From: Candidatus Sericytochromatia bacterium
GTDB lineage: Bacteria > Cyanobacteriota > Sericytochromatia > S15B-MN24 > UBA4093
Reading direction: 5' to 3'
Assembly: GCA_036676985.1 (NCBI GenBank)
Contig: JAKFBU010000041.1
Span: 1-64,000, forward strand
DNA length: 64,000 nucleotides
Both the position numbers and the translations under genes were made by a program. Under the pieces are notes generated by a model that was given only the letters and a program-made list of their open reading frames with translations, ran no database searches and was not told where the DNA came from. This document shows, one piece after another, positions 28,316 through 62,400 of the stretch (positions within the stretch are counted from its first letter, which is position 1; each line of letters opens with the position of its first letter).

Positions 28316-28551
28316 GGGCGTCGCGGGCCGCGGAGAGCCTTTCCACGCCCCGGCGTCATATTTCTTCCAAAAAAGTAACCATGAGTCCCGGCGGGCCGCA
28401 AAAGTAGGCGATTAAGGGATCCGCAGGCCGTCAGCGGATCGCCGCCCCCAGGGATCGCCGGCCGGCTTGACATAGCGCCCTAGCCATCGGGTATGTTGCC
28501 GTAGGATACTCAGGCATCTGTTCGGTCTCCGGTTTGGCGAAAAGGGTGCCC

Positions 28552-29664
28552 ATGACGGAAAAGGCTCCTGGATCTTGTACGCGCTGCGAGCTGCCCCCCA
28601 AGCGGGTGGTGGGCGCAGGCGGGCTGTACTTGTGGTTCCCCCTGGCACACCTTTTCGAGAAGGCCCAGGGGCATCTTCGGCAAGTCGGCAGCGAACACCG
28701 GGTCCTGGTGGCGGAGCAGTGCATGCTGCTGTGCACGCTCGACGGGGAGCTCTCGGCGGCCATGGAAGGCCTCGGCGGCCTCTTGACCCTCGAGGAGCAG
28801 AAGGACACCCAGGTGCTCTTCATGCGCGACCAGGCGACGCCCACCCTGGCGGACTACGGGCGCGTCACCTCCCTGTTCCAGTTCATCACGGTGGTCCGCT
28901 CGGGCTGGCTCATCGACATGCTCGAGGCCCAGCGCCTCACCAGCCACTTCCAGCCCATCGTCCACACGGCGGACACCTCCCGCATCTATGCGCATGAGGC
29001 CCTGATGCGGGGCCTCGAGCCGGACGGCAGCATGGTCTTCCCGCTCAAGATCCTGAACCTCGCCCGCGACGCCGGCATGTTGAGCCAGCTGGACCTGCTC
29101 GCGCGGCTCACGGCCATTCGCCAGGCCCACCAGCACGGCATCCCGCAGCGAGTGTTCATCAACTTCAACCCGGCGGCGGTCTACGATCCGGCCCACTGCC
29201 TGCGCTCCACCATCCAGGCCATCGACGAGGCGGGCATCCCGCACGAGCACATCGTCTTCGAGATCGTGGAGTCCGACCACACCCAGGACCTCAACCACCT
29301 CAAGGCCATCCTGGCCTTCCTGCGCCAGGAAGGGTTCAACGTGGCCCTCGACGACCTGGGGGCGGGCTACTCGTCGCTCAACTTGCTGCACCAGCTGCGG
29401 CCGGACTTCGTCAAGCTCGACATGGAGCTCGTCCGCAACGTCCACCAGGACCCCTACAAGGGGCTCATCACCCGGAAGATCCTCGAGATCGCCCAGCACC
29501 TGGACATCAAGACGGTCGCCGAGGGCGTCGAGTACGCCGAGGAGCTCGCGTGGCTGCGCGAGCACGGCGCGGACTTCGTGCAGGGCTACTTGATCGCCAA
29601 GCCCACCACCCCGCCCGTCCTCCAGACGCCCGCCATCGGCATGCGGGCCCAGGACCTGGTTTAG
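28552..29664 (+). CDS. EAL-domain c-di-GMP phosphodiesterase
   Basis: FQPIV, EALMR, INF, FEIVES, LDDLGAGYSS, KLD, AEGVE, QGY. Confidence 0.92.
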   Translation: MTEKAPGSCTRCELPPKRVVGAGGLYLWFPLAHLFEKAQGHLRQVGSEHRVLVAEQCMLLCTLDGELSAAMEGLGGLLTLEEQKDTQVLFMRDQATPTLADYGRVTSLFQFITVVRSGWLIDMLEAQRLTSHFQPIVHTADTSRIYAHEALMRGLEPDGSMVFPLKILNLARDAGMLSQLDLLARLTAIRQAHQHGIPQRVFINFNPAAVYDPAHCLRSTIQAIDEAGIPHEHIVFEIVESDHTQDLNHLKAILAFLRQEGFNVALDDLGAGYSSLNLLHQLRPDFVKLDMELVRNVHQDPYKGLITRKILEIAQHLDIKTVAEGVEYAEELAWLREHGADFVQGYLIAKPTTPPVLQTPAIGMRAQDLV

Positions 29665-34443: not shown

Positions 34444-37400
34444 ATGCATCTAACCCACTGGGAAACGCTCGAATTCAGCCCCCCGTTCCTTTACCTGGCT
34501 CTCGCCGGCGGGGACATCGGCGAGGCGCTCCAGATGGTGGCATTCGAGCTTCTAAAGCCAGACTATGCCAATTTGGAGAGGTTGCCTGCAAGAGGCAAGG
34601 ACGGGGGAATCGATCTTCATGAAGACCGCCCCGGTGAGCGCGCGGTCGTCCAATGCAAGGTAATCGGCGAGCCTGGTCTGGAAGCCGTTCTCAAGTCGTG
34701 GAAACTGTTTGCTGAGACACTCGAGCGCAACGTGCGCGATCCGAAAGGTCCGCCTGCGGGACAGGGCCAGTACCAGCCCTGGTACCGTACGGATCTGCCG
34801 ATTCGCGAGTTCGTCTGGTGCGTGAGTTCGCCCTTGAACAACGTCAATCAGCGCGATCAGGCCCAGCAGGCGATTGTGCGATTTTTCGATCAGTTGGCAG
34901 CCAAGTACGCCCACCTCTCGCACCTTGCGGGCATGGACGTGAAGGTGCTCGACTGGCATCGCTTGAGAGAACGACTTGAGTCACGCCCACAAGTAGCCCT
35001 GCGCTGGTTTCCAGCCCTTCGACAGCATAACCTCAAGCCCCTGGAAAAAGTTAGCGACACGGGCACCTTTCGGTCCTACCTGAATTCGGACAGGCTGGCG
35101 TACTATAGCCGGGCCGAGCACCTGAGGATTCACCCAAAGCCAGGGCATGCCGATATTCACACTGAGGAGGATTTGCTCCATCTGCTGGAAGTCGATGCAT
35201 TCAGCGGTCTGATCTTGGCCGGGGTGGGAGGCGTCGGAAAAAGTCGCATGACCCTTGAGCTGGGGCACCTGGCGGAAGCGCGCGGCTGGCTCGTGTTGAA
35301 AGTCGCCAATCGCTCCCTTGAGCTTGGGGACCTCACTGAATATGCTCGACTGTTCTCAAAGCCAGGGATCCGTACGCTCCTCTTGATTGATTACGTCGAA
35401 CTTCAGGCCAATTTTGCTGGACTAGTTGAGACCATACTAGAACTCAACAATACCTACGACCTGTCAATTCGTTACATCGCGAATTGCCGTACCAACTTCT
35501 ACTTTCAGCAAGGCCTCGACGAGATCCCCGACCACTTGATGATCGACTTGTCGCCAACCAATCAAGGGCAAGCGTGGTTCCAATCCTACAAGGAGCGCAC
35601 GGTCCGGCACATTCTTGAAAGCGCCGACCTGGGCGATGACGAAACGCTGACCCAAACGTGTCAAGGTCTGCCAGTATTGGCGACCTTCCTCGCCTATCTA
35701 AACAACGCCGGACGCAAAGCCGACCTGGAAGAGTTGCGAAAAGAGGAAAATTTCGCGTCCTGGATCCTTCGACGCCTGCAGCTTACGTTTGGAAAGACGT
35801 CCATCGATCGGGAGCTTGCGGCCCTCATTTCCCTGTTCCCGTGGCGCGGACCACTCCCCTCCGCGACGGACCACAAGTCCATTCGCGACCTATTCGAACG
35901 CCTTGTGATGGACGGCTGGATCGAGCAGGAGGCCGAGGAGCCAGGCACATGGGCGGTCATCCACGACGTCCTAGCCGATCAAATCCTGATCTCCTACCTA
36001 CGTCGAATTTCCAAGATACAACAAGCGTTCGTCGAAGATCTGTTCAACTTTGCCATCTCCTTCGGCCAGCTCCACTCCGCGCTAATCGCGCTGCGGCGCA
36101 TCGCTGGTAGCAGCGAATTGGGGTCGATCGATTGGAAAACCCTCCTGGACGCACAATTCGCCGTCGCTCCACAGGCCTGGAAGCACGTGCGAGACGTGGT
36201 GCTATACTGGCCGTCGCTCAGGCTGGACGACATTAGTAGCTTCCTCGAACGGCATCCCGATGTCTGGGAAGGGGCCGACGAGACGACGGAGTTCCAGCTT
36301 GGGCTCGGCTGGCATCTGAAGACGGCCGTCAAAAGCGCTCTGCCGGGGCAGCACCATAAGCTAAACACGGCCTTGCTCATCCGCCTGAAAAGCATCGTGC
36401 GCCTTGCGTCGAAGATCAACTACGTGTTGACCTGGAGCCTTCGCTACGCGCCGGGCGAGTTCCAAGAGGCGGCCCTGGCCTGGATTGCGGCGCATCCTCT
36501 GCGATTTCAAACGCATTATCTGCTGGTAGCCTGCCTCGACACAGGCACCCTGCCGGACCTGCTGGCAGCTCAGGTTCTCGCCTGGAGCAATGCATTTGAA
36601 CAGGATGCGCACTTTTGCTTCGTGGCATCGGCATGGCTCAGGGCTGGCGGTGACCATGGCGTCATCCGTGACTCGATCGGCAAATGGCTTGAGCAGCACA
36701 AGACCAGCCTTGAAGCGGAGTTTGTCTATAAAGCATGGCTCGACGCAACTGGCGAGTGCGACTTCGTCCGAGCATCCCTCGCTCAATGGCTTGAGCAGCA
36801 CCAGACCAGCCTTGAAGCGGAGTTCGTCTATAAAGCATGGCTTGACTCGAAGGGCGATTGCGAGTTCATCCGAGCGCCCATAGCTCAATGGCTGGAGCAG
36901 CATAAGACAAGCGAGGAAGCGCGCTTCGTCTATTATGCCTGGCTCGGCTCAACTGGCGAGTGCGACTTTGTCCGAGCACCCATCGCTAAATGGCTGGAGC
37001 AGCACAAGACCAGCCTTGAAGCGGAGTTCGTCTACTATGCCTGGCTCGGCGCAGCAGGCGAGTGTGACTTCGTCCGAGCGCCCATCTCTCAATGGCTGGA
37101 GCAGCATAAAACTAGCTTGGAAGCGAGTTTCGTCTATCAAGCCTGGCTAGACTCGAAAGGCGATTGCGACTTCGTCCGAGCGTCCATAGCTCAATGGCTG
37201 GAGCAGCATAAGACCAGCGAGGAAGCGCGCTTCGTCTACTATGCCTGGCTCGGCTCAACTGGCGAGTGCGACTTCGTCAGAGCGCCCATCGCTAAATGGC
37301 TGGAGCAGCATAAATCCAGCTCAGATGCGAGTTTCGTCTGTAAAGCCTGGCTCGCAGCGGGCGGCGACTTTGAAACGGTTCGGGAAGTTTCGATTGATTG

Positions 37401-38088
37401 GCTGAGACGAAATAAAGATGACGCCGAGGCGGTGTTCCTCTTGAAATATCTCTCGAAGCAGAAGCGCCTGCCAAACGAGACAATCCAAGATATCCTTCAC
37501 TGGTGTCGAAAGCACGCCGATAATCCTGACGCCATCTGGCGCCTCAGCTCGCTCAACAGCCAGCTGGCCAAGACGGACACGAAGGTAGCTGCCATCCTTG
37601 CGGCCGAATCCGTCATCGATGTCTACTTGAGCGGGCCGGAGGGGATCAGCGACCGAGTCGCTGAGCAGATCACCAACACCCTTGCTTTCGTCACAAAATA
37701 CGACAAACATGTCGAGCCACAAGTCCGCGAGCGGCTGGAACTTCTCCATCTCCGGTGGTTCCTTCATCCATGCTCGTTCACTCAGCGCCACTCTCATCCT
37801 ACGAGTCAGCAGCTTGGTTTCCTATTAAAGCTCATTGGCCATCTGAAAGCCGGCAAGCTAGACCTACATCGGGATAGAGCGCGATTCGAGGCATTTTTCC
37901 GGTGGATGAACACGTGGTCGGTCGAAAACAAGGAGCGAATCCGGAAGCAACTCGGCTATCTGCGTAAAAAATTCCCCCAAGGCCGCCTCATCTGGAGTCT
38001 CGTGCGACTGGGTCCGCTGCCCGCGCCTACGCCGTCACCAGGGCATCATCTAGCTCCAGGACCACCGGGCAATGGTCGGAGCCCTTGA
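34444..38088 (+). CDS. Mrr-like PD-(D/E)xK nuclease + STAND-like P-loop NTPase + 34-aa helical repeat protein (putative defence)
   Basis: KDGGIDL...VQCK; GVGGVGKS Walker A; LLLIDYVE Walker B; tandem WLEQHKTS repeats. Confidence 0.75.
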   Translation: MHLTHWETLEFSPPFLYLALAGGDIGEALQMVAFELLKPDYANLERLPARGKDGGIDLHEDRPGERAVVQCKVIGEPGLEAVLKSWKLFAETLERNVRDPKGPPAGQGQYQPWYRTDLPIREFVWCVSSPLNNVNQRDQAQQAIVRFFDQLAAKYAHLSHLAGMDVKVLDWHRLRERLESRPQVALRWFPALRQHNLKPLEKVSDTGTFRSYLNSDRLAYYSRAEHLRIHPKPGHADIHTEEDLLHLLEVDAFSGLILAGVGGVGKSRMTLELGHLAEARGWLVLKVANRSLELGDLTEYARLFSKPGIRTLLLIDYVELQANFAGLVETILELNNTYDLSIRYIANCRTNFYFQQGLDEIPDHLMIDLSPTNQGQAWFQSYKERTVRHILESADLGDDETLTQTCQGLPVLATFLAYLNNAGRKADLEELRKEENFASWILRRLQLTFGKTSIDRELAALISLFPWRGPLPSATDHKSIRDLFERLVMDGWIEQEAEEPGTWAVIHDVLADQILISYLRRISKIQQAFVEDLFNFAISFGQLHSALIALRRIAGSSELGSIDWKTLLDAQFAVAPQAWKHVRDVVLYWPSLRLDDISSFLERHPDVWEGADETTEFQLGLGWHLKTAVKSALPGQHHKLNTALLIRLKSIVRLASKINYVLTWSLRYAPGEFQEAALAWIAAHPLRFQTHYLLVACLDTGTLPDLLAAQVLAWSNAFEQDAHFCFVASAWLRAGGDHGVIRDSIGKWLEQHKTSLEAEFVYKAWLDATGECDFVRASLAQWLEQHQTSLEAEFVYKAWLDSKGDCEFIRAPIAQWLEQHKTSEEARFVYYAWLGSTGECDFVRAPIAKWLEQHKTSLEAEFVYYAWLGAAGECDFVRAPISQWLEQHKTSLEASFVYQAWLDSKGDCDFVRASIAQWLEQHKTSEEARFVYYAWLGSTGECDFVRAPIAKWLEQHKSSSDASFVCKAWLAAGGDFETVREVSIDWLRRNKDDAEAVFLLKYLSKQKRLPNETIQDILHWCRKHADNPDAIWRLSSLNSQLAKTDTKVAAILAAESVIDVYLSGPEGISDRVAEQITNTLAFVTKYDKHVEPQVRERLELLHLRWFLHPCSFTQRHSHPTSQQLGFLLKLIGHLKAGKLDLHRDRARFEAFFRWMNTWSVENKERIRKQLGYLRKKFPQGRLIWSLVRLGPLPAPTPSPGHHLAPGPPGNGRSP
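36685..37398 (+). repeat. Seven tandem 102-bp (34-codon) intragenic repeats
   Basis: Units begin with TGG at 36685, 36787, 36889, 36991, 37093, 37195, 37297. Confidence 0.95.
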
Positions 38089-47800: not shown

Positions 47801-48208
47801 CTAGGCCTTGTCCGGAATCCGCACCACGAAGTACCCCTGCTTCCACCGCCGGCGGTACTCGTCGAGCCACTGGGCCACGGCCTTGCCCTCGACGTCCTTC
47901 TTGAGGTTGAAGATGTCCTTGATGGTGTAGCTCGGCTCCCCCTGGAGCTCCGCGACCATGGCATCCGAGAACACCTCGAGGCAGCGTTCGGGCGGGGGCA
48001 GTTGCGCCGGCTGCACGTCGCCCATGTCCTCGAGAATCGGGACGAAGGCCGGCAGGTTGATCCCGAAGTGGTTGCGGATCACCTCCGACATCTCCCAGGC
48101 GAGCTGGTCGGGCTCGTGCTGACAGCCGCCGTCGGTGGGCACGAAGCCCGCTCCGCCGTCGCTGCCCTGGGAGAACCAGCAGATGTAGTGCATCAAAGGG
48201 GTCGCCAT
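47801..48208 (-). CDS. Hypothetical protein
   Basis: 135-aa ORF with host-like codon usage. Confidence 0.65.
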   Translation of the reverse strand: MATPLMHYICWFSQGSDGGAGFVPTDGGCQHEPDQLAWEMSEVIRNHFGINLPAFVPILEDMGDVQPAQLPPPERCLEVFSDAMVAELQGEPSYTIKDIFNLKKDVEGKAVAQWLDEYRRRWKQGYFVVRIPDKA

Positions 48209-48292
48209 CGAGAGCCTCGCTTCCGGGTGGGATCGAACGCCCCGATTATCGCGCCCCTCGGGTCGAAGCGTCCAGCGCCGCCCGGCGGCTGG

Positions 48293-49594
48293 CTAGAATT
48301 TCCGCTGGCTCGAGATGGCGTAGTAGAAGCCCTTGGAAGAGGCGAACAGGCCGTTGTAGGCCCCCATGGCCAGATCGATCCGCGACTCCGCCCCGTCGAA
48401 GCCGAGTCCCAGGCTGTACAGGGTGGCGCTCTCGCCGCCGACGCTCAATCCGGCCCGCAAGGGCAGCCAATCCAGTACTCGGTACTCTCCGCCCAGATGG
48501 ATCTCCGGGATGTTCGAGACGCCGTAGCCCTTGCCCATGCCGACTTCCACGTCGGCCGCGAGCATGAGCGGCACGGCGCCTGCCGGCAGCCACCGGCCTC
48601 CGACGCCGACCTTCAAGGGCAACGGATCCCAGATCCCCTGGCCGTTGTTCGGCCCCACGGACTCCTCGGTCTGGACGTTCGGCGTCGCGTTGAACTGGCC
48701 GTCCGACGACAGCCCCGGCGCGTAGCGATCGAGCTTGTAGGTGTGGCGCTTCTCCGTGACGTTGCCCCAGTAGACGCCGCCGATATTGCCCACGTTCAGA
48801 GCGAGCCTCAGATCGCGCCGCACGTCCACCGCCACCGAGGTGTCGAGCGCCATGCCGCTGCCGAAGGTCCCGTACTGGTAGGTGGCGCTCGCCTCGCCCG
48901 AGAAGGAGCCGTCCGCATTGGTCTGCAGCAGATCCCCCCGAGCCTCGGTGATGCGCCCGAAGGCAAGGCCCTGGACGTAGCGTCCGGTCACACCCACCGC
49001 CACGTTCGGCAGGCGCATGAAGGTGAGAGGGATGCCGACGGAGAGCCCCCCGTCGGCAAAGCTGTCGATGCGCGCACCCTCCAGGCTGTCGATGCGCACG
49101 GCGGTCGCCGCCGCGTTGCCCCTGAGCACCAGTCCCAGCAGGTCGCGAGGCAAGTTCAGGCCCGCCGTGTCGAGCGTGCTCCGGGCGAAGACACCGAGCC
49201 CCGAGGCCGGGATGCTCGCCCCCCAGGAGACGCCCCCGTCGAGCTGGAAGCCCCATCCCGTCGCGGGGATGGCGCCCGCGAGGTTCTCGGCGTCGGCCTC
49301 CGAGAGCTCCTTACCCTGCAAGAGCTCGTCGATGGCCCTAAAGCCCAGCAGGTTGTTGCCGAGCCCGATACTGATGCCTGGCAGCGAGGAGATCACGGCG
49401 GAATGCGTGGAGGGCAGGCCCAACAGGGCCGGGGTGGTCCAGGCGTTGGAAGCGGCTCCCTCGACCGCGAGGCCCGCACGCCCCATTCCGAGCGCACGCG
49501 CATCGTACGGCACGGCCTCCGCCCGGTCAGCAATGGCAAGAGAGGCCCCCAAGAGGAGGGCGATCGCGCTGGCTGTCCGGATCGAGTGGCTCAT
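48293..49594 (-). CDS. Outer-membrane beta-barrel (FadL/PorV/TraF-DUF5723-like)
   Basis: Signal peptide; ARALGMG...NAWTTPA N-terminal motif; GGEY...LRAG; terminal Phe. Confidence 0.7.
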   Translation of the reverse strand: MSHSIRTASAIALLLGASLAIADRAEAVPYDARALGMGRAGLAVEGAASNAWTTPALLGLPSTHSAVISSLPGISIGLGNNLLGFRAIDELLQGKELSEADAENLAGAIPATGWGFQLDGGVSWGASIPASGLGVFARSTLDTAGLNLPRDLLGLVLRGNAAATAVRIDSLEGARIDSFADGGLSVGIPLTFMRLPNVAVGVTGRYVQGLAFGRITEARGDLLQTNADGSFSGEASATYQYGTFGSGMALDTSVAVDVRRDLRLALNVGNIGGVYWGNVTEKRHTYKLDRYAPGLSSDGQFNATPNVQTEESVGPNNGQGIWDPLPLKVGVGGRWLPAGAVPLMLAADVEVGMGKGYGVSNIPEIHLGGEYRVLDWLPLRAGLSVGGESATLYSLGLGFDGAESRIDLAMGAYNGLFASSKGFYYAISSQRKF

Positions 49595-49855
49595 GAACTC
49601 CCCAACGTGGCGTGAACGAGGGCAAACCCATCATGCAACGGGCGAAGCGCGCGCTTCTGAGACGCCCATCACCGATCGCACCGCACGCCTACCCTATGCT
49701 TCTACCCGGCGACAAAAAATATTGGCAACATTTGGTGATCATATTTCTGAAAAGGGTACACAGGCATAGAGGCAGGGCCCGGCTTTCAGGCCAACCAACC
49801 GCTGAGAGCCGCTTAGCCCCCAGGTTTGCACAGCATGATTTTCACAGGTGACCGC

Positions 49856-51787
49856 ATGACGCGACGATTGGTGCTCCAGATCGCCCTGTCCCTGAGCCTG
49901 GTGGCGACGGCCGGCGCTCCGGTGGCCGCCGCTCTCGCTCCCCTGCCGCCCCTCCAGACGGCGCCGACCCGGCTGATGCTCGGCGAGTCGAACCCGTCTT
50001 TGGTGGAGCTGAGCTACGAGCGCCTGCTCGAGGAGAGCCTGCAGCAGAGCCTGGCCGCATACCTCGGCCCCGACAACTTCGTGGTGCAGGTTCGAGTGGC
50101 GATCGCCCAGGACTCTCAGTCCTCGCAGCCCGCCCCGGTGCAGCAGTTCCAGCCGCAGCCCATCCAGGCGCCCGTCGTCCAGCCTCAGCAGCCCGCCTTC
50201 GAGGAGCTCGCAGCGGAGCCGGACTTCGACTCCATTCCGGCCCTGCCGGGGCTCGGCATTCCCGCCGAGGAGCGGACCCGCCGTCCGGCTCGCCAGGCGC
50301 AGCCCGTGCAGCCGCCCCAGCCGCAGACGCCGACCTTCCAGCCCCAGCCTCAGGCACCCGTCGCCCAGCAAGCCGCCATGCCCCGGATCGAGCGGATCCG
50401 GGTCTCCCTGGTTCTGCCGAGCTCGCTCCAGAGCACCGACGAGGACTACGTCAAGAACCTGGTCTTCCAGCGCGCCGACCTCAACTTCGCCCGGGGCGAC
50501 ACCCTGGACATCACGCGCCGGGACTTCCCGCGCTCGGCGGGCATGCCTGCCGCGGCAGGCGGCCAGAGGCCGGCCGGCACGATGCCGGGCTGGCTGTGGG
50601 CGCTTGCCGGCGCTCTCGGCGCGAGCGTCCTCATCGGGGGCGCGCTCATGCTGCGCCGCCGCACCGAGCCCCAGCAGGCCTTGGCCCCGATGGCCCCCAT
50701 GCTGCCTCCTCAGTCCGAGAACATGCGGGCTGCCGAGGCGCTCCTCGCCAGCGTCAGCGCGAGCAAGACCGCCGAGCCGCCGCCCATGCGCCAGGACCTC
50801 CTCGTGATGCTCCTCGAGCGTCCGGAGATGGGTGAGCGCTACGTGCGGCGCCTCTTGAGCGAAGAAGGCGGACTCGAGAAGGCCACGACCTTCGCCCAGG
50901 CCATGGGCGTGGGGGTTGCCAAGCGCCTCTTCAACGGCCTGCACCCCAACGAGTGGAAGGCCATCGAGCTCGCCGCCCTCGACCAGAAGGACGTCAAGCG
51001 CGAGGATCAGCAGTCGGCCCTCGAAGAAGCCCTCTTCGCCATGCTGCGCGAGCAGGCCGAGCACCAGGGCAGAGACAAGGACGCTCCGTTCGCCTTCCTC
51101 TCGACCCTCGACGACTCCCAGATCCTCTTCATGCTCGAGGACGAGGGACCGCGCGTGCAGGCCCTGGTCCTCTCGCAGCTGTCTCCCGACCGGGCGGTTG
51201 GCCTCATGCGCCTCAAGACGCCCGCCGAGCAGGGTGCCATCGCGGCCGCCATGGGCGAGCTGCACCTGTTGCCCATGAGCTCGTTCATCGACCTGGCGCA
51301 CCACATGGCCGAGAAGGCCACCAAGGCTCCGAGCTTCGAGACGCCCGTCACCAACGGCCTGGGCCTGCTCGTCAACCTGCTCGACCACTCCGATCGGGCG
51401 ACCGAGCAGGGCATCCTCAGCGGCCTGTCGACCCAGAACCCGAGGCTCCTCGCCCAGGTGCGCGAGGCCTACCTCACCTTCGACGACCTGGCCAAGGTGC
51501 CGCGCGACGTCCTCAAGGACGCCCTGCGCGAGGTGGACAAGGAAACCCTCGCCGAGGCCCTGCGCGACGCGCCAGAGCCGGTGCGCGACGCCATCGTCGC
51601 CTCGCTCACCGACCGTGCCCGCCGCATCGTCGACGACGTCCTGTCGCAGCCGCCCATGGCCCGGCAGGAGGAGGCGAAGCTCGAGGCCATCCGCAAGGAC
51701 CTCGTGGGCCGCGTCCGCCAGCTGATGCAGGCCGGTCGGTTCGCCGTCAAGGAGCTCCAGATTCCCAAGCAGGAGGAGGTCAGGTGA
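49856..51787 (+). CDS. FliF ring-like / TM / FliG(M+C) fusion protein
   Basis: Signal peptide; LAAYLGPDNFVVQV...RGDTLDI (FliF C-terminal ring-like); one TM; PFAFL...EGPRVQALVLSQL (FliG_M); YLTFDDL...LREVD...ALR...LTDRARRIVDD (FliG_C). Confidence 0.8.
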   Translation: MTRRLVLQIALSLSLVATAGAPVAAALAPLPPLQTAPTRLMLGESNPSLVELSYERLLEESLQQSLAAYLGPDNFVVQVRVAIAQDSQSSQPAPVQQFQPQPIQAPVVQPQQPAFEELAAEPDFDSIPALPGLGIPAEERTRRPARQAQPVQPPQPQTPTFQPQPQAPVAQQAAMPRIERIRVSLVLPSSLQSTDEDYVKNLVFQRADLNFARGDTLDITRRDFPRSAGMPAAAGGQRPAGTMPGWLWALAGALGASVLIGGALMLRRRTEPQQALAPMAPMLPPQSENMRAAEALLASVSASKTAEPPPMRQDLLVMLLERPEMGERYVRRLLSEEGGLEKATTFAQAMGVGVAKRLFNGLHPNEWKAIELAALDQKDVKREDQQSALEEALFAMLREQAEHQGRDKDAPFAFLSTLDDSQILFMLEDEGPRVQALVLSQLSPDRAVGLMRLKTPAEQGAIAAAMGELHLLPMSSFIDLAHHMAEKATKAPSFETPVTNGLGLLVNLLDHSDRATEQGILSGLSTQNPRLLAQVREAYLTFDDLAKVPRDVLKDALREVDKETLAEALRDAPEPVRDAIVASLTDRARRIVDDVLSQPPMARQEEAKLEAIRKDLVGRVRQLMQAGRFAVKELQIPKQEEVR

Positions 51788-52455
51788 GACGCTCCCGCAT
51801 CCTTCTAGCCGGTTCGCTGTGCCTCATGGCGCTCGGCATGGCCCTCGCCATGCCGCCGGCTGCCACCAACGCCCAGACCGCCGCCGCCTCGCCCAAGCCC
51901 AAGGCCGATGCTCCGCCCCAGGGCGGCATCCGCCTGCGCCGCGAGGGGCCCAGCATCGACCTGGACTCGATCATCGACGCCACGCAGCCGGACTTCTTCA
52001 TCAACGTGGAGATCGTGGCCACGCCCACGCCCCTGCCCACCCCGACGCCGACGCCCGAGCCCTTCCCCACCCCGGAGCCCATGCCGACGCCCGAGCCCAC
52101 GCCTGACGTGGTCCTCGAGCCCTCGCCGGAGCCCAGCCCCGCGGTCGTGCTCGCCCCCACGCCCTCGCCCTTGCCCCAGAAGCCGGCGGTGGACCTGATG
52201 TACCAGGCGCAGCGGCTGGCGACGCTCGGTCAGTACCAGCGATCGCTCGGCCTCATCGAGCAGGCCATCGGCCAGGACCCGGAGCGCGCGAGCCTCCATG
52301 CCGTCCGCGGCTCGGTGCTCTTCAAGCTCAAGGATTACGCCGAGGCCGAGGCGGCCTGGACCAAGGCCCTCGAGCTCGATCCCAGCGCCTACGACGTGAA
52401 GACCAGCCTCGACTGGCTCAAGAAGCGTCGGGCGTCGTCCCAGTTCGCTCAGTAG
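51784..52455 (+). CDS. Exported Pro/Thr-rich TPR protein
   Basis: GTGA overlap with the upstream stop; signal peptide; PTPEP linker; C-terminal TPRs (AWTKALELDP). Confidence 0.8.
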   Translation: MRRSRILLAGSLCLMALGMALAMPPAATNAQTAAASPKPKADAPPQGGIRLRREGPSIDLDSIIDATQPDFFINVEIVATPTPLPTPTPTPEPFPTPEPMPTPEPTPDVVLEPSPEPSPAVVLAPTPSPLPQKPAVDLMYQAQRLATLGQYQRSLGLIEQAIGQDPERASLHAVRGSVLFKLKDYAEAEAAWTKALELDPSAYDVKTSLDWLKKRRASSQFAQ

Positions 52456-52465
52456 AGGAAGGACC

Positions 52466-53608
52466 ATGCGCAAGATCCTCTCCGTCGCCCTCATCGGCCT
52501 CTTGGGCATCGCCCCGGCGGCGCTCGCCAAGGAGCCGGTCCCGCCCGTCCCGGCGCTGACCGAGATCCTCTCCGATCCGCAGTCGATCCTCTACGTCATC
52601 CCGTCTCTGCCCGACACCGTGACCAAGATCGACCCGACGGTCGTACGCGTCTTCCTCTACAACGAGCGCAAGCGCGACGAGACCGAGCCCCTGTCGGCGG
52701 TCGTCGAGAACCGTCTCAACGAGGAGCTGCTGCGCCTTAGGCGCTTCAAGGTCATCGAGGCCCGCGAGGCCAAGACCACCCGCGTCGAGTCGAGCAGCAC
52801 CAGCTTCCAGCTGAGCAACACCATCGAGAGCCTCTCGCGCCTGCGCTCCATCGGGCAGTCGGTCGGGGCCGACGCCGTCATGATGTACGCGCCGCAGATC
52901 CAGGACCGCATGGTGCTCGTGAGCGCCAAGCTGGTGAAGGTCTCGGACGGCGAGATCCTCTGGACCGACCGTTTTGCCTACAACTTCGACCTGCAGTCCG
53001 CCATGAAGGAGGCCAAGGTCCGGGCCGACGAGCTCGCGAAGCTGGAAGCCGACAAGAAGCGCGTCGCCGAGGAGCGCCGCACCCGCGACAACGGCTTCTA
53101 CGTGTACACCGGCATGACCGGCTACTCCATGCGCCGCGCGAAGACCTCGGGCGCCAGCGACCAGATCTCGCCCGCGGGCATCACGGCGCTCGGCGCCACG
53201 GTGCTGCGCAACGTCTCGTTTGCCGACAACGTGGCCGTGGGCCTGGATGGCGAGTTCGACCTGGCGGGCTCCATCAACCCGAACCTGCCCCTCTCGTACC
53301 TCTCCATCACGCCCGTCCTCTTCATGCGCCTCGACCCGCTGTTCGTGCGCGGGGAGAACCACGGCGTGGTCAACCTATACCTGGGGGCTGGCGAGACGGT
53401 GCTGTTCCAGCAGCCGAACCCCACCTACGAGACCACGGGCAAGGCCGGCCTGATGTTGCGCTTCACCCCCGAGACCTTCCTCAACCTCGGCATGATCTAC
53501 CAGACCGAGAAGACCGTCACCTTCAGCCCGGTCACCGGGCTCGCCAACACGGTCGAGAAGTACGGCGGCCTCACCTACCAGGTCACCTTCGGCTACGCGT
53601 TCAAGTAA
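52466..53608 (+). CDS. Exported protein: CsgG/FlgO/LpoB-like domain + coiled coil + probable beta-barrel
   Basis: RFKVIE...IGQSVGADAV...AKLVKVSDGEILW pattern; amphipathic strands ending YQVTFGYAFK. Confidence 0.65.
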   Translation: MRKILSVALIGLLGIAPAALAKEPVPPVPALTEILSDPQSILYVIPSLPDTVTKIDPTVVRVFLYNERKRDETEPLSAVVENRLNEELLRLRRFKVIEAREAKTTRVESSSTSFQLSNTIESLSRLRSIGQSVGADAVMMYAPQIQDRMVLVSAKLVKVSDGEILWTDRFAYNFDLQSAMKEAKVRADELAKLEADKKRVAEERRTRDNGFYVYTGMTGYSMRRAKTSGASDQISPAGITALGATVLRNVSFADNVAVGLDGEFDLAGSINPNLPLSYLSITPVLFMRLDPLFVRGENHGVVNLYLGAGETVLFQQPNPTYETTGKAGLMLRFTPETFLNLGMIYQTEKTVTFSPVTGLANTVEKYGGLTYQVTFGYAFK

Positions 53609-53619
53609 GGGACTGATCG

Positions 53620-54453
53620 ATGCCCATGATTTCCATCTCGACGCTCGCCGGCATCCTGCTGGGCTTCGGCCTGTGCATCTGGGCCATCACGTCGGCGACC
53701 AAGGACTTCCACATCTTCTGGCACATGGAGTCCTTCGCCATCGTCATCGGCGGCATCTTCGCCACCACCCTGATCGGCTACCGCACGCGCTACGTCATCC
53801 GCACGCTGTCGAGCCTGGGGCGCCTCTTCGTGATGCAGCCCATCCAGCCGGCCACCCTGCGCGACGACATCCAGCAGATGGTGGAGTGGGCGTCGCTCAA
53901 CCAGCGGGGCCTGGGCGCGGTCGAGGAGGACTTCGCCAAGAAGCCCACCAAGGATGACTTCCTGCAGTACTCCATGGACATGCTCATGAACGGCTACAAG
54001 GAGCATGACCTGCGCCTCTTCCTCGGCGACTACATCGAGAGTAGCTTCAACCGCAAGATGGTCCAGGCCCAGATCCTCAACCAGATGGGCGGCCACGGCC
54101 CCGCCTTCGGTATGATCGGCACCCTGATCGGTCTGGTCATCATGCTGGCGGACATGTCGGACCCCTCCAAGATCGGCCCGGCCATGGCCATGTCCCTGCT
54201 CGCGACCCTCTACGGCGTCGTGAGCGCGCGACTGCTCTTCATCCCGGCCGCGAGCAAGATCCAGCAGATCCTCGAGATCGAGAAGTATCGCCGCTACATG
54301 CAGCTCGAGGGCATCGTGATGCTGCAGGAGAAGCGGTCGGCGACCTACGTGATGGACCGCCTCAACTCGCTGATGGATCCGTCCCTGCGCTACAACCGCG
54401 ACGGCTCGGCGCCCAAGAAGGGCACCGGCCCGCTGCTCGCGGCCAAGCGGTAG
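53620..54453 (+). CDS. motA: MotA/PomA-type stator subunit
   Basis: IVIGG, PAFGMIGTLIGLVIML, IGPAMAMSLLATLYG, FIPAASK. Confidence 0.9.
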   Translation: MPMISISTLAGILLGFGLCIWAITSATKDFHIFWHMESFAIVIGGIFATTLIGYRTRYVIRTLSSLGRLFVMQPIQPATLRDDIQQMVEWASLNQRGLGAVEEDFAKKPTKDDFLQYSMDMLMNGYKEHDLRLFLGDYIESSFNRKMVQAQILNQMGGHGPAFGMIGTLIGLVIMLADMSDPSKIGPAMAMSLLATLYGVVSARLLFIPAASKIQQILEIEKYRRYMQLEGIVMLQEKRSATYVMDRLNSLMDPSLRYNRDGSAPKKGTGPLLAAKR

Positions 54454-54462
54454 GGCCGGCGC

Positions 54463-55236
54463 ATGTCGAACCCGATCGGACGCAACCGGAGCCCCTTCGG
54501 GCCCAAGGGCGGCGGCGGCCACGCGCTCAAGGAAGACGAGCAGTGGCTCATCACCTACGCCGACACCATCACCAACCTCATGGCGCTCTTCATCCTCATG
54601 CTGTCGGTCTCGACGGTCAACATGGCGGCCTTCGAGCAGATCCAGTCCAAGCTCAAGAAGCAGTTCTCGGGCAAGGAGGCCCCCAAGCCCATCGAGCAGA
54701 TCCAGAAGCAGATCGAGAAGATCGTCCAGGAGAAGAAGCTCGAGAAGCAGGTGCAGGTGACCTCGGACGGCAAGGGCGTCATCGTCGAGTTCGCGTCGAG
54801 CGCCGTCTTCCAGCTCGGCAAGGCGGATCTCCAGCCCCAGATCAAGGGGGCCTTCGCGGCCATGGCCACGGAGCTCAAGACCAAGGACTACCGTAACTAC
54901 ACCATCGAGATCGAGGGCCACACGGACGACCAGCCCATCCACACGCCGGAGTTCCCCTCCAACTGGGAGCTCTCGAGCCGCCGGGCCACCAACGTCGTCC
55001 GCTACTTCATCGATGAGAACGTCGAGAAGACGCGCCTCAAGGCGGCGGGTTACGCGGACATCTTCCCCAAGGTGCCGAACCGGGACGCCAACGGCCGGGC
55101 GATCGCTGCCAACCAGGCGAAGAACCGCCGCATCGTGGTCCGGCTCGTGCCCGGCCAGCGCAGCGAGGGCATCTCGAAGGAAGCGCTGAAGAAGGAACAG
55201 GCCCAGGACGCAGCCCCCAAGGGCGGCCACCACTAG
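54463..55236 (+). CDS. motB: MotB/PomB-type stator subunit
   Basis: WLITYADTITNLMALFILM (essential Asp); EGHTD, SNWELSSRRA, GYAD, NRRI OmpA-like domain. Confidence 0.92.
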   Translation: MSNPIGRNRSPFGPKGGGGHALKEDEQWLITYADTITNLMALFILMLSVSTVNMAAFEQIQSKLKKQFSGKEAPKPIEQIQKQIEKIVQEKKLEKQVQVTSDGKGVIVEFASSAVFQLGKADLQPQIKGAFAAMATELKTKDYRNYTIEIEGHTDDQPIHTPEFPSNWELSSRRATNVVRYFIDENVEKTRLKAAGYADIFPKVPNRDANGRAIAANQAKNRRIVVRLVPGQRSEGISKEALKKEQAQDAAPKGGHH

Positions 55237-60036: not shown

Positions 60037-62400
60037 CTAGCGAGGAAGCAGGGGGACGCTCGGCTCGATGGCGATACGGATCTCGCGGGCGGACTCCCGG
60101 GAGGTGTCCCGGAAGAACGAGAGGGCCTGCATGAGGCTCTGGGCCTGGCGCTCCAGGTCGCCCGCCGCCGAGGCGATCTGGTGGGTGGTCTGGGCCGCCT
60201 CCTGGGCGCTGCGGTGCATGGTGTCCACCGCGCCCACGATGAGGTCTCCGCCCGCGCGTTGCTCGACGGTCGCCGTCGAGACCTGGTGGGTCATGCGGTT
60301 CATGACCTCGACGGCCCGGACGATGTGCTCGCTGCCCGTCGACAGCTCCCGGATGGCGCCCGTGACCTCGCGGGTCAGCAGGGCCATGCGATCGCTCGCC
60401 GACAGGATCTGGTCGACGGCCCCCGTCTGCTCGCGGACGGCGAGCTCGATATGGCCCACCTGCGAGGTGGCCTGATCCACGGCCGTCACGATCTCGTCGA
60501 GCGCGCGGCCCGCGTTCTGCGCGAGGGTCATGCCGGCCCGGATGGCGTCCTCCCCCTCGCGGGTGCTGCGGACGGTCGCCTGGGTCTCGTCCTGGATGGC
60601 CTTCAGGAGGTCGGCGATCTCCCGGGTGGCCTTGGCGGAGCGCTCGGCGAGCTTTCTCACCTCGTCGGCGACCACCGCGAAGCCCCTGCCCGCCTCCCCG
60701 GCCCGTGCGGCCTCGATGGCCGCGTTGAGGGCCAGCAGGTTCGTCTGCTCGGCGATGTCGTCGATGACGGCGATGATCGAGCCGATCTCGGCCGTGCTCT
60801 TGCCGAGCCCCTGGATCGAGGCCACGACCGTGCCCATGACCTGGTTGATCCGCTCCATGCCCTGGACGGTCTGCTCGACGGCCTGGCTGCCGCGGCCGGC
60901 GGCGTGGGTGGCCTGCTCGGTGGCCTGGTTCGCCGTCGTCACGTTGACGGCCACCTGCTTGAGGCTCGCGGCCAGCTGCCCGATGCTCGTGGCCGTGACC
61001 TCGGCGGAGGCCGCCAGGCCGTCGGCGTTGCCCGCCGCCTGGCGGAGGCTCATGATCATCTGCTCGATGGACGAGGAGGTCTGCTCGACGCTCGTCGACA
61101 GGGCCTCGGCGTTGCCCGCCACCTGCTGGATGCTCGCGGCCATCTCCTCGATGGACGAGGACGTCTCGCCGGCGGTCGAGGCCTGTGACTGGGCGAGCCG
61201 CGCCAGGTGCTCGGTGCTCGGCCGGATCTGCTCGGCCGACGAGGCGACCACGTGTGCCGACGAGGCGATCTGGCCCGTGATCTCGCGCAGCCGGGCGTCC
61301 ATGGCGTTCATGGCCGTGAGCAGCTGGCCGATCTCGTCGCTGGAGTCCACCTGGACGGTGTCGCCGAGTTGGCCGTCGCGGAGCTGGTTGGCCATGCGCA
61401 CCGCCCCCCGCAGGGGCAAGGTGATGCTCCGGATGATGAAGACGATGAGGCCGACCGCGAGCACGAGCACCAGGAGGATGCTGCTCAGCGTCAGGATCTT
61501 GCTCTGGTTGAACTTGTCGACGCGCTTGACGAGCAGGGTGTCGAGCGCGGGCGAGGTGGCGTCGTACAGGGCGAAGCTACCCTCGGACGCGCCGTCGAAG
61601 GCCCGCTCGAAGTCCATGGGCGCGAGCGCCACCCGCTCGGACTTGGTCAGGCGCTCGTCCACGAGCTTCAAGAGGGCCTCCGTGCGCTCCGTGTTGGCGC
61701 GCTGGGAAGAGGAGAGGATGGGCTCGAGGGTGGCGTTGTTGGCGTAGGCCACGCGGTAGGACTCGTTCAAGAGGCCGAGGTTGGACTTGATGAGCCCGTT
61801 CAGCACCACCAGCAGGGTGCGGTCCTCGGCGGTCATGGCGCCCTTGGCGAGGATGCCCGCCACGTGGGCCTCGAACTGTCCGAGCAGGTCGGCGGAGGTG
61901 GGCAGCTTCAGGAGGACGGCGTCCATCAGGTAGTAGCTGTCGAGGTCCGGATCCAGGATCAGGTTGGAGTAGTTGCCCACCGTGGCGTTGAGGGCCAAGA
62001 GGGGGGCGCTGAGGGCCACCGGACCGTTCTGGCTCTTGGCGGCCTCGATGGCCTTCTTGACCTCCGCGAAGTCCTTGGCCGTCTTGAGGGGGCCGGACAG
62101 GCGGCCCTCCACGGCGGAGACCTTTTCGAAGGCGGTCGCGAGCTCAGCGCCCCGGCCCGCCACCAGGGCCCGGGCAGCCGGATCGCGGCGCGCCGCGTTG
62201 ACGGCCTGACCGTAGTCCAGGCTGCGCTCGAAGACGTCCATGAGCGGCACGAGGTACTCGACCCCGAGGCGCTCCTTGGTGCCGAAGTCGATGGCGATGT
62301 TCTTCTCCTGGACGAGGAGTTGAATGCCCACGATGAACGGCACGAACAGCGACAGGGCGATGAGCGTCAGTTTCTGCCAGATCTTCAGTTTCCGTAGCAT
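60037..62400 (-). CDS. Methyl-accepting chemotaxis protein
   Basis: 2 [44 protein letters not shown]. Confidence 0.95.

Follow-up and report, generated by a model that had tools for sequence, protein, structure and literature searches.

A natural FliF-FliG fusion encoded with TPR, outer-membrane and MotAB proteins in a Sericytochromatia genome

The fusion gene and its domains

The window examined here, a 64,000-nucleotide stretch of contig JAKFBU010000041.1 from a Candidatus Sericytochromatia bacterium, carries on its + strand an open frame (49826-51787) in which an ATG at 49856 gives a protein of 643 residues. The initial annotation, made from the sequence alone, had described this gene as a natural fusion of FliF and FliG, and that observation is confirmed by Pfam, by fold matches and by sequence matches in the PDB: the gene is a natural join of the C-terminal periplasmic part of FliF and a membrane helix to a complete FliG. 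It is the first of five genes on the same strand, which encode the fusion, a TPR protein, a FlgO/LpoB-like outer-membrane protein, MotA and MotB and are separated by -4, 10, 11 and 9 bases; the rest of the window consists of ordinary chromosomal genes, with no other flagellar gene. The G+C content at third codon positions of the fusion frame (0.92) is similar to that of the neighbouring genes. The features of the fusion gene are as follows.

49856..51787, + strand: FliF(RBM3)-FliG fusion gene, 643 residues; an in-frame TTG at 49826 is an alternative start
49856..49954, + strand: N-terminal hydrophobic segment, residues 1-33, signal peptide or uncleaved anchor (hydropathy)
50000..50107, + strand: first half of the RBM3-like domain, residues 49-84 (helix 49-70, strand 76-84)
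50114..50374, + strand: Gln/Pro-rich loop, residues 87-173, at the position of the FliF collar region (low-confidence model)
50243..50251, + strand: LPG motif, L130-P131-G132 (family alignment, alignment with FliF)
50384..50521, + strand: second half of the RBM3-like domain, residues 177-222 (strand, helix, strand), including RGD
50582..50656, + strand: transmembrane helix, residues 243-267, followed by RRRR (hydropathy, AlphaFold model)
50870..51076, + strand: FliG N-terminal domain, residues 339-407 (Pfam, alignment with Aquifex FliG)
51116..51325, + strand: FliG middle domain, residues 421-490, in which EGPR (430-433) replaces EHPQ
51422..51742, + strand: FliG C-terminal domain, residues 523-629; R570, R587 and D594 are the equivalents of E. 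coli K264, R281 and D288

Hydropathy analysis revealed two hydrophobic stretches, at residues 4-33 and 242-267. The first is either a cleaved signal peptide or an uncleaved anchor resembling the first membrane helix of FliF, and the RRRR directly after the second places the C-terminal part of the protein inside the cell. The predicted topology is thus an N-terminal signal or anchor, ∼210 periplasmic residues, one membrane helix and ∼375 cytoplasmic residues.

An AlphaFold model of the fusion, built on 19 sequences and with per-residue confidence (pLDDT) of 85-90 in its ordered parts, placed in the periplasmic part a helix (49-70), a strand (76-84), a low-confidence segment (87-173), a strand (177-188), a helix (193-207) and a strand (216-222), and this predicted secondary structure is that of the alpha-beta-beta-alpha-beta ring-building motif. 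A separate model of residues 45-227 gave the same fold. When this second model was compared with ∼48,000 PDB representatives without a Foldseek prefilter, the closest folds by VIA-align were the RBM3 domain of Vibrio FliF (Z 14.5, root mean square deviation (rmsd) 3.0, 104 residues aligned), residues 232-438 of Salmonella FliF (Z 14.2, rmsd 2.8, 104 residues) and the Vibrio S-ring (Z 12.5, rmsd 3.1, 103 residues); after FliF came SpoIIIAG, an unrelated redox protein and domain 2 of PrgK, all at Z 8.0, which is the background level of the tool. A split ring-building motif had been proposed for this region from its letters, and the model together with these three FliF matches bears the proposal out. 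A Foldseek search with the periplasmic model likewise returned FliF MS-ring chains at all of ranks 1-17 (expectation value (E) 3.9e-4 to 5.7e-3). At the sequence level, the Pfam profile YscJ_FliF_C (PF08345) covered residues 66-224 over its whole length (positions 1-147 of 147) at 19.8 bits against a cut-off of 23.8, and scored 22.6 bits in a six-frame search; a distant member of the fusion family (locus L045) scored 34.3 bits, above the cut-off. Further, a profile of the fusion family matched RBM3 in the FliF encoded by this genome (32.8 bits, E 5e-8 per genome), and BLASTP aligned the fusion with the same region at 26% identity over 182 positions.

The loop that splits the domain (residues 87-173) is 23% Gln and 23% Pro, and its composition and direct alignment with FliF uphold the earlier description of a Gln/Pro-rich insert at the place of the FliF beta-collar. 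Among 44 diverse family members the Pro of its LPG motif is invariant and the Leu and Gly occur in at least 90%, and the motif aligns with the G-VPG of three canonical FliF proteins, namely E. coli FliF and both FliFs of the genome. Judged from these alignments, the LPG loop is the probable counterpart of the VPG collar motif of FliF. An RGD before the last strand is also common to the fusion and canonical FliF in direct alignment. As the initial annotation had supposed, the N-terminal domains of FliF are absent: within the own genome, PF01514 (FliF RBM1/RBM2) matched only the FliF genes on contigs C26 and C6 and not the fusion, and only ∼15 residues separate the N-terminal hydrophobic segment from RBM3. 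A fusion lacking RBM1/RBM2 offers no housing for the export gate. A three-copy complex prediction of the periplasmic domain scored 0.17 against a mark of 0.42, and speaks neither for nor against ring formation.

In the cytoplasmic part, Pfam recognized FliG_C (65.9 bits, E 4.6e-18, residues 523-629), FliG_M (29.0 bits, residues 421-490) and FliG_N (25.2 bits against a cut-off of 25, residues 339-407), the last of which scored 41.4 bits in the homologue at locus L014. Kinship with MgtE_N, named from the outset as the competing assignment, is not borne out, as that profile gave only 18 bits against the 65.9 bits of FliG_C and a 19-member family profile matched 12 distinct PDB sequences, all of them FliG (best, T. 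maritima FliG-MC, E 5e-24). The full fusion model gave FliG chains at Foldseek ranks 1-13 (E 6e-9 to 3e-6), and full-length Aquifex FliG (residues 6-326) aligned to query positions 318-642. This alignment and the FliG-first matches indicate a whole FliG, beyond the M and C domains; the single membrane helix followed by FliG_M and FliG_C had been listed in the initial annotation, and FliG_N is present in addition. Against the NCBIfam fliG equivalog model TIGR00207 the fusion scored 63 bits, below the cut-off of 226.7.

The EHPQR motif of FliG binds FliM. Alignment with both T. maritima and E. coli FliG (reference from NC_000913) placed EHPQ opposite EGPR (E430-R433) of the fusion, so that the change read earlier from the letters holds: E125 is kept, and H126, Q128 and R160 are replaced by G, R and A, respectively. 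Among 132 family representatives, E125 is present in 124 and Arg or Lys at position 281 in 117, position 126 is never His, and R160 is Arg in 3. The torque helix is preserved in part. The counterparts of E. coli K264, R281 and D288 are R570, R587 and D594; V595 stands opposite D289 in the alignment, and the residue opposite R297 is either acidic or neutral. Thus, the claim that torque charges are retained holds for three of five positions, and two of its supports gave way: the DD taken to represent D288/D289 corresponds to R287/D288, and the AR is not conserved in the family. The canonical FliG of the same genome keeps EHPQR and the torque positions, with Glu instead of D289. The initial annotation had concluded that the protein is an unswitchable, export-less one-protein rotor. 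The lost EHPQR positions (E125 excepted) and the missing RBM1/RBM2 fit the first two attributes, and the one-protein rotor remains a conjecture.

The operon and its stator

The genes that accompany the fusion, which are the strongest part of its context and were not mentioned in the initial annotation, are listed below, together with a divergent gene upstream on the opposite strand.

51784..52455, + strand: secreted TPR protein (TPR domain C-terminal, spacer rich in Pro, Thr and Glu) with a GTG start that overlaps the fusion stop by 4 bases
52466..53608, + strand: envelope protein of 380 residues with a signal peptide and a weak FlgO match (Pfam, synteny)
53620..54453, + strand: MotA/PomA-type stator A subunit (PF01618, 70 bits)
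54463..55236, + strand: MotB-type stator B subunit (MotB_plug 56.9 bits, OmpA 63.9 bits)
48293..49594, - strand: divergent protein of 433 residues with weak DUF5723 and PorV/PorQ matches

The FlgO match of the envelope protein (22.3 bits) lies just under its cut-off of 22.6, and its Atlas neighbours, which serve as leads only, are LpoB/CsgG, TolB_N and outer-membrane barrel families; these leads would give the protein an LpoB/CsgG-like N-terminal part and an outer-membrane barrel-like part. The MotA gave PomA and MotP as its best NCBIfam models, both below their equivalog cut-offs. Compared with E. coli MotA it keeps Glu98, Pro173 and Pro222 and has Asn in place of Arg90, and the MotB keeps the Asp aligned with E. 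coli D32. By these alignments, the cassette encodes a dedicated flagellar-type stator that has the residues of ion flow (MotB Asp32; MotA Pro173 and Pro222) and the torque-contact residue Glu98 facing FliG Arg281. In its plug, OmpA domain, MotB Asp32 and MotA Glu98, Pro173 and Pro222 the pair resembles the flagellar stator MotA5B2/PomA5B2. A 2025 survey of MotAB proteins, in the portion accessible to us, defines the flagellar type by torque interface, plug and OmpA-type domain (PMC12505986), and the cassette stator fits that type on plug and OmpA domain.

Genetic pairing of MotA-Arg90 with FliG-Asp289 and of MotA-Glu98 with FliG-Arg281, the second pair being the more important for torque, is described in the available part of PMC4030992. 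Across cassettes, R90 was found in 27 and E98 in all of the 32 MotA sequences compared, and all 34 cassettes that have both genes keep MotA Glu98 and the Arg/Lys at FliG-281. The other pair varies jointly: in 29 of 30 marine cassettes (see below) FliG-289 is acidic and MotA-90 is Arg, and in the Sericytochromatia cassettes (4/4) FliG-289 is V, T or A and MotA-90 is N, A or T. This paired presence or loss is suggestive of a direct contact between the FliG part of the fusion and the cassette MotA.

These findings bear on a reading of the cassette as a non-rotating transducer, in which MotAB works conformationally on an anchored protein that reaches outer-membrane partners through its Pro-rich segment, as in Tol-Pal or TonB. 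In Tol-Pal, ExbBD-TonB and GldLM, an inner-membrane motor of the A5B2 type is coupled across the periplasm to outer-membrane partners, including a TPR protein, and the cassette shares with them an ion-driven inner-membrane motor with periplasm-spanning coupling. Compared with the parts list of Tol-Pal, an ion-driven A/B pair, an anchored Pro/Gln-rich protein, a TPR protein with a Pro-rich spacer and an outer-membrane protein are all present. However, the cassette differs from all three systems in having FliG, a FliF ring domain and the flagellar torque interface. In the Tol and Ton systems the motor contact lies within the membrane, whereas here the FliG C-terminal domain and the cytoplasmic Glu98 of MotA are conserved, and the periplasmic fold is the one that builds the rings of 33-35 subunits to which the titles of the matching PDB entries refer. 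We therefore consider a non-rotating transducer unlikely, though a serious alternative.

The divergent 433-residue gene stands outside the five-gene set and is absent from the marine cassettes; among related Sericytochromatia loci, four have it directly upstream of the fusion and one has it ∼8.5 kb upstream. Over the minus-strand stretch 47801-49594, the 433-residue protein recurs in loci L008-L011 and L016, and a 135-residue protein in L009-L011. No promoter-like sites were found, and the two terminator-like sites are no more than expected by chance. Elsewhere in the window and apart from the cassette, we noted a methyl-accepting chemotaxis protein with HAMP and MCPsignal domains (60037-62400, - strand), an EAL-domain protein (28534-29664, + strand) and an open reading frame of 1214 residues (34444-38088, + strand) in a stretch with a G+C content of 0.57-0.59, compared with ∼0.68 around it. 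The 1214-residue frame has no Pfam match above threshold and a 22-bit match to P2 tail completion, and the stretch has no Rfam match; it may be acquired DNA.

Distribution of the fusion and the cassette

Whole-genome searching covered the Cyanobacteriota. Uninterrupted fusions were found in 16 of 47 genomes of the class Sericytochromatia, along with one fragment at a contig end, and they are confined to two families: 9 of 10 genomes in f1, the window's genome included, and 8 of 8 in f4, compared with 0 of 29 in f2, f3, f5, f6 and f7. FliM and FlhA were each present in 45 of the 47 genomes; because these proteins occur nearly everywhere in the class, flagella are general in it and the fusion is not. 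Among 401 Cyanobacteriota genomes searched, no uninterrupted fusion was found outside Sericytochromatia f1 and f4. The other long matches in the phylum were rejected as adjacent fliF and fliG genes read through stop codons. Genus g14, a candidate for carrying the fusion without a canonical FliG, was likewise rejected, as a PF01706 search found FliG in 4 of 4 g14 genomes. The related loci (n = 9) are labelled Candidatus Sericytochromatia or Tanganyikabacteria, with one labelled Stenomitos.

The TPR and outer-membrane genes follow the fusion in all seven Sericytochromatia loci with downstream DNA, and MotA-MotB lie directly downstream in three of these seven. At L014, the sole f4-type locus scanned with Pfam, the place of MotA-MotB is taken by a gene for an unknown protein of 262 residues and a Dus gene. 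Orthologues of the window's MotA (63-89% identity) were found only in eight other fusion-bearing f1 genomes; in G018, the f1 genome without the fusion (91% complete), the best MotA match is 32% identical and groups with the MotA of the flagellar cluster. A maximum-likelihood tree of 22 MotA paralogues resolved three clades, one of which (support 100/100) unites the fusion-adjacent MotA, the MotA of a second pair in genus g3, that of a MotB-MotA pair standing by itself in f4 genomes and a single f5 sequence; the tree brings long branches together, which leaves its inner order unsure. In f4, a sister family, the stator genes have been relocated to another part of the genome. The second MotB-MotA pair of genus g3 stands right after the cassette MotA-MotB (L009:15289-15909; L011:15274-16729).

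Beyond the class, a profile search of 1.84 billion cluster representatives returned 146 proteins at E <= 1e-30. The full fusion layout, defined as a periplasmic match, an internal membrane helix, a FliG part running to the end and at least 540 residues, was present in 127 of 148 listed representatives at 50% identity; the remainder comprised 11 FliG-sized proteins without the helix and 10 fragments or other forms. Most clusters carry no source name. Those that do include Vibrio nigripulchritudo, Vibrio sp. SCSIO 43132 and 43136, Vibrio agarivorans, and metagenome-assembled genomes (MAGs) of Elusimicrobiota, Fibrobacteraceae and Fibrobacterota, and the annotation of the named members goes no further than "FliG C-terminal domain-containing" or "FliG-like" protein. 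No plasmid in the collection searched matched the Vibrio fusion member.

A metagenome scan with four members of a distant marine subfamily, ∼23% identical to the window's fusion, yielded 46 loci. All five genes are adjacent in the 22 of 22 loci that are long enough, in an order that differs from that of the window (outer-membrane protein, TPR, fusion, MotA, MotB); by coordinates, the other 24 have a contig edge inside or beside the cassette. The 15 longest loci share flanking genes and are thus one lineage and not 15 cases, and the flanks of one marine-type locus, L045, are housekeeping genes. That the same five genes stand together in a different order in so remote a lineage is the main evidence that they work together.

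This distribution leaves little room for the fusion being a decaying, functionless duplicate of fliF and fliG. Decay would account for the loss of the EHPQR motif, of RBM1/RBM2 and of two torque-helix charges. However, the frame is intact in 16 genomes of the class, the full architecture is kept in 127 of the 148 listed representatives, E125 and the Arg or Lys at 281 persist in 124 and 117 of 132, and the five-gene set is conserved across distant lineages. We regard decay as extremely improbable.

The window's genome also has a canonical flagellar set on contig C26 (FliF, FliG with 155 bits on FliG_C, MotA, FliM and FlhA) and three flagellin-type matches. The fusion is therefore an addition to a flagellated organism and not its sole rotor. 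This fact lends weight to the main competing explanation, that the cassette provides accessories of the ordinary flagellum, such as an extra basal-body ring or scaffold through which a second type of stator is recruited. Proteins of the TPR and FlgO types form periplasmic rings of flagella, with precedents in PflA/PflB, FlgP, MotX/MotY and FlgO/FlgT of Campylobacter and Vibrio, and the fusion is accompanied by a TPR protein and by one that weakly matches FlgO; those cultured carriers that have names belong to Vibrio, and all fusion-bearing Sericytochromatia genomes are flagellated. Because every carrier in the class is flagellated, this explanation stays in contention. Yet the cassette lies apart from the flagellar cluster and has housekeeping flanks both in the window and at L045; a ring-building domain and a FliG of its own come with it, and the FliM-binding motif has been lost; it is patchy within the order, being found in 0 of 9 f2 and f3 genomes despite their FliM and FlhA; and members come, by source name, from Fibrobacterota and Elusimicrobiota, whose carriers may lack flagella. 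On balance, we judge the accessory role to be rather unlikely.

The genome contains other unusual flagellar-type genes. A second FliF of ∼643 residues (C6:59057-63100; L004:1342-3270) has RBM1/2 (177 bits), RBM3 (89 bits), a membrane helix and a Gln/Gly-rich linker followed by a C-terminal FliG_M domain (37.9 bits), and adjoins a second FlhA (787 bits); open reading frames of similar size match its profile region in other genomes of the class. At C19:68093-68734, and at many loci in family f2, the FHIPEP (FlhA) match covers the cytoplasmic part only (profile positions ∼320-540, in open reading frames of 300-900 residues), and f2 genomes have 7-12 FHIPEP matches each.

A putative rotor-stator machine of the envelope

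Taken together, the results lead us to favour, with some reserve, the view that the cassette encodes a stand-alone, unswitchable and export-less rotor-stator machine of the cell envelope derived from the flagellar motor, its rotation and output being what we infer rather than observe. The RBM3 domains would assemble into an MS-ring-like ring in the inner membrane, with one FliG beneath each subunit. MotA5B2 units, anchored to peptidoglycan through MotB, would push on the FliG C-terminal domains by ion flow, and the ring would turn in one direction. Such a machine would lack a FliM/FliN switch as well as an export gate, a rod and a filament. Instead, the LPG-bearing Gln/Pro-rich loops would project into the periplasm and link the ring with the TPR and outer-membrane proteins, and candidate outputs would be the moving or remodelling of an outer-membrane or periplasmic component, as by GldLM or Tol-Pal. 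The more specific proposal, that of a free-standing ion-driven rotary machine in which the fusion ring is spun by its own MotAB and the LPG loops drive or position the outer-membrane partners, we put forward tentatively as a possibility. That the cassette descends from a rotor-stator module that existed before the motor joined with the type III export apparatus appears very unlikely.

Several observations weigh against a stand-alone rotor-stator machine. In the window's own fusion protein the FliF profile PF08345 stays below its cut-off, and the equivalents of D289 and R297 in the torque helix and of Arg90 in MotA are missing from the window's cassette. In family f4 the stator genes do not adjoin the fusion. 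The covariation of FliG-289 with MotA-90 is no more than suggestive, since it involves two independent lineages only. The function assigned to the collar-region loop is a guess, the loop being modelled with low confidence, and ring formation, rotation and expression of the cassette are predictions from its genes. FliM and FlhA are each found in 16 of the 17 fusion-bearing genomes, the misses being in genomes that are 64% and 87% complete; as all fusion-bearing Sericytochromatia carry flagellar genes, independence from the flagellum is no more than conjectural in this lineage.

Compared with the flagellar motor core, the cassette has the same RBM3 fold, the VPG/LPG and RGD motifs, a three-domain FliG and the equivalents of Arg281 and Asp288. 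It differs in that a single polypeptide combines FliF and FliG, the EHPQR motif for FliM binding is gone, the equivalents of D289, R297 and MotA R90 are lost in the window's lineage, TPR and outer-membrane partners replace rod, hook and filament, and the genes lie off the flagellar cluster. Engineered FliF-FliG fusions of Salmonella and Vibrio join the two proteins covalently at 1:1, and the accessible portion of the source reports that the Vibrio fusion forms rings (PDB 8z4d/8z4g). Those constructs contain full-length FliF (a chain of 945 residues), keep RBM1/RBM2 and sit inside a flagellum, whereas the window's fusion is natural, 643 residues long and without RBM1/RBM2. A natural precedent is the Chlamydiaceae FliF-FliG fusion (Bergeron 2016, PMC4768692), which in the available part of that article has ∼330 residues, with RBM2, one further RBM and only a region resembling the FliG middle domain; the same part suggests a connection with the injectisome and mentions no MotAB partner. 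As far as that account goes, both proteins are natural joins of a shortened FliF to FliG-like sequence outside a complete flagellum. Unlike the chlamydial protein, however, the one in the window has 643 residues, RBM3 only, FliG N, M and C domains and its own MotAB, and on the same partial account the chlamydial layout is closer to the genome's own C6 FliF, which ends in FliG_M.

We found no description of the five-gene cassette in the literature covered, a scope that takes in neither subscription journals nor supplementary files. To our knowledge, FliG and the FliF ring domain have been described only in flagella, apart from the truncated form in Chlamydia. To the distribution of the cassette the window adds a flagellated carrier lineage, a different gene order, the relocation of the stator in f4, the paired loss at MotA-90 and FliG-289 and the correspondence between LPG and VPG. 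The question can be addressed experimentally, since there are cultured carriers, by source name Vibrio nigripulchritudo and Vibrio agarivorans. If the proposed machine is real, it would join the flagellum and the injectisome as a third type of machine made of flagellar parts, one whose output is not a filament, and it would provide a minimal, genetically compact system for rotor-stator coupling in which the fusion fixes FliF:FliG at 1:1. A conserved and widespread operon that keeps the torque pair of FliG ring and MotAB but has neither switch nor export gate, rod or filament would show the motor core to be reusable as a module, which bears on how the flagellar motor was assembled in evolution.

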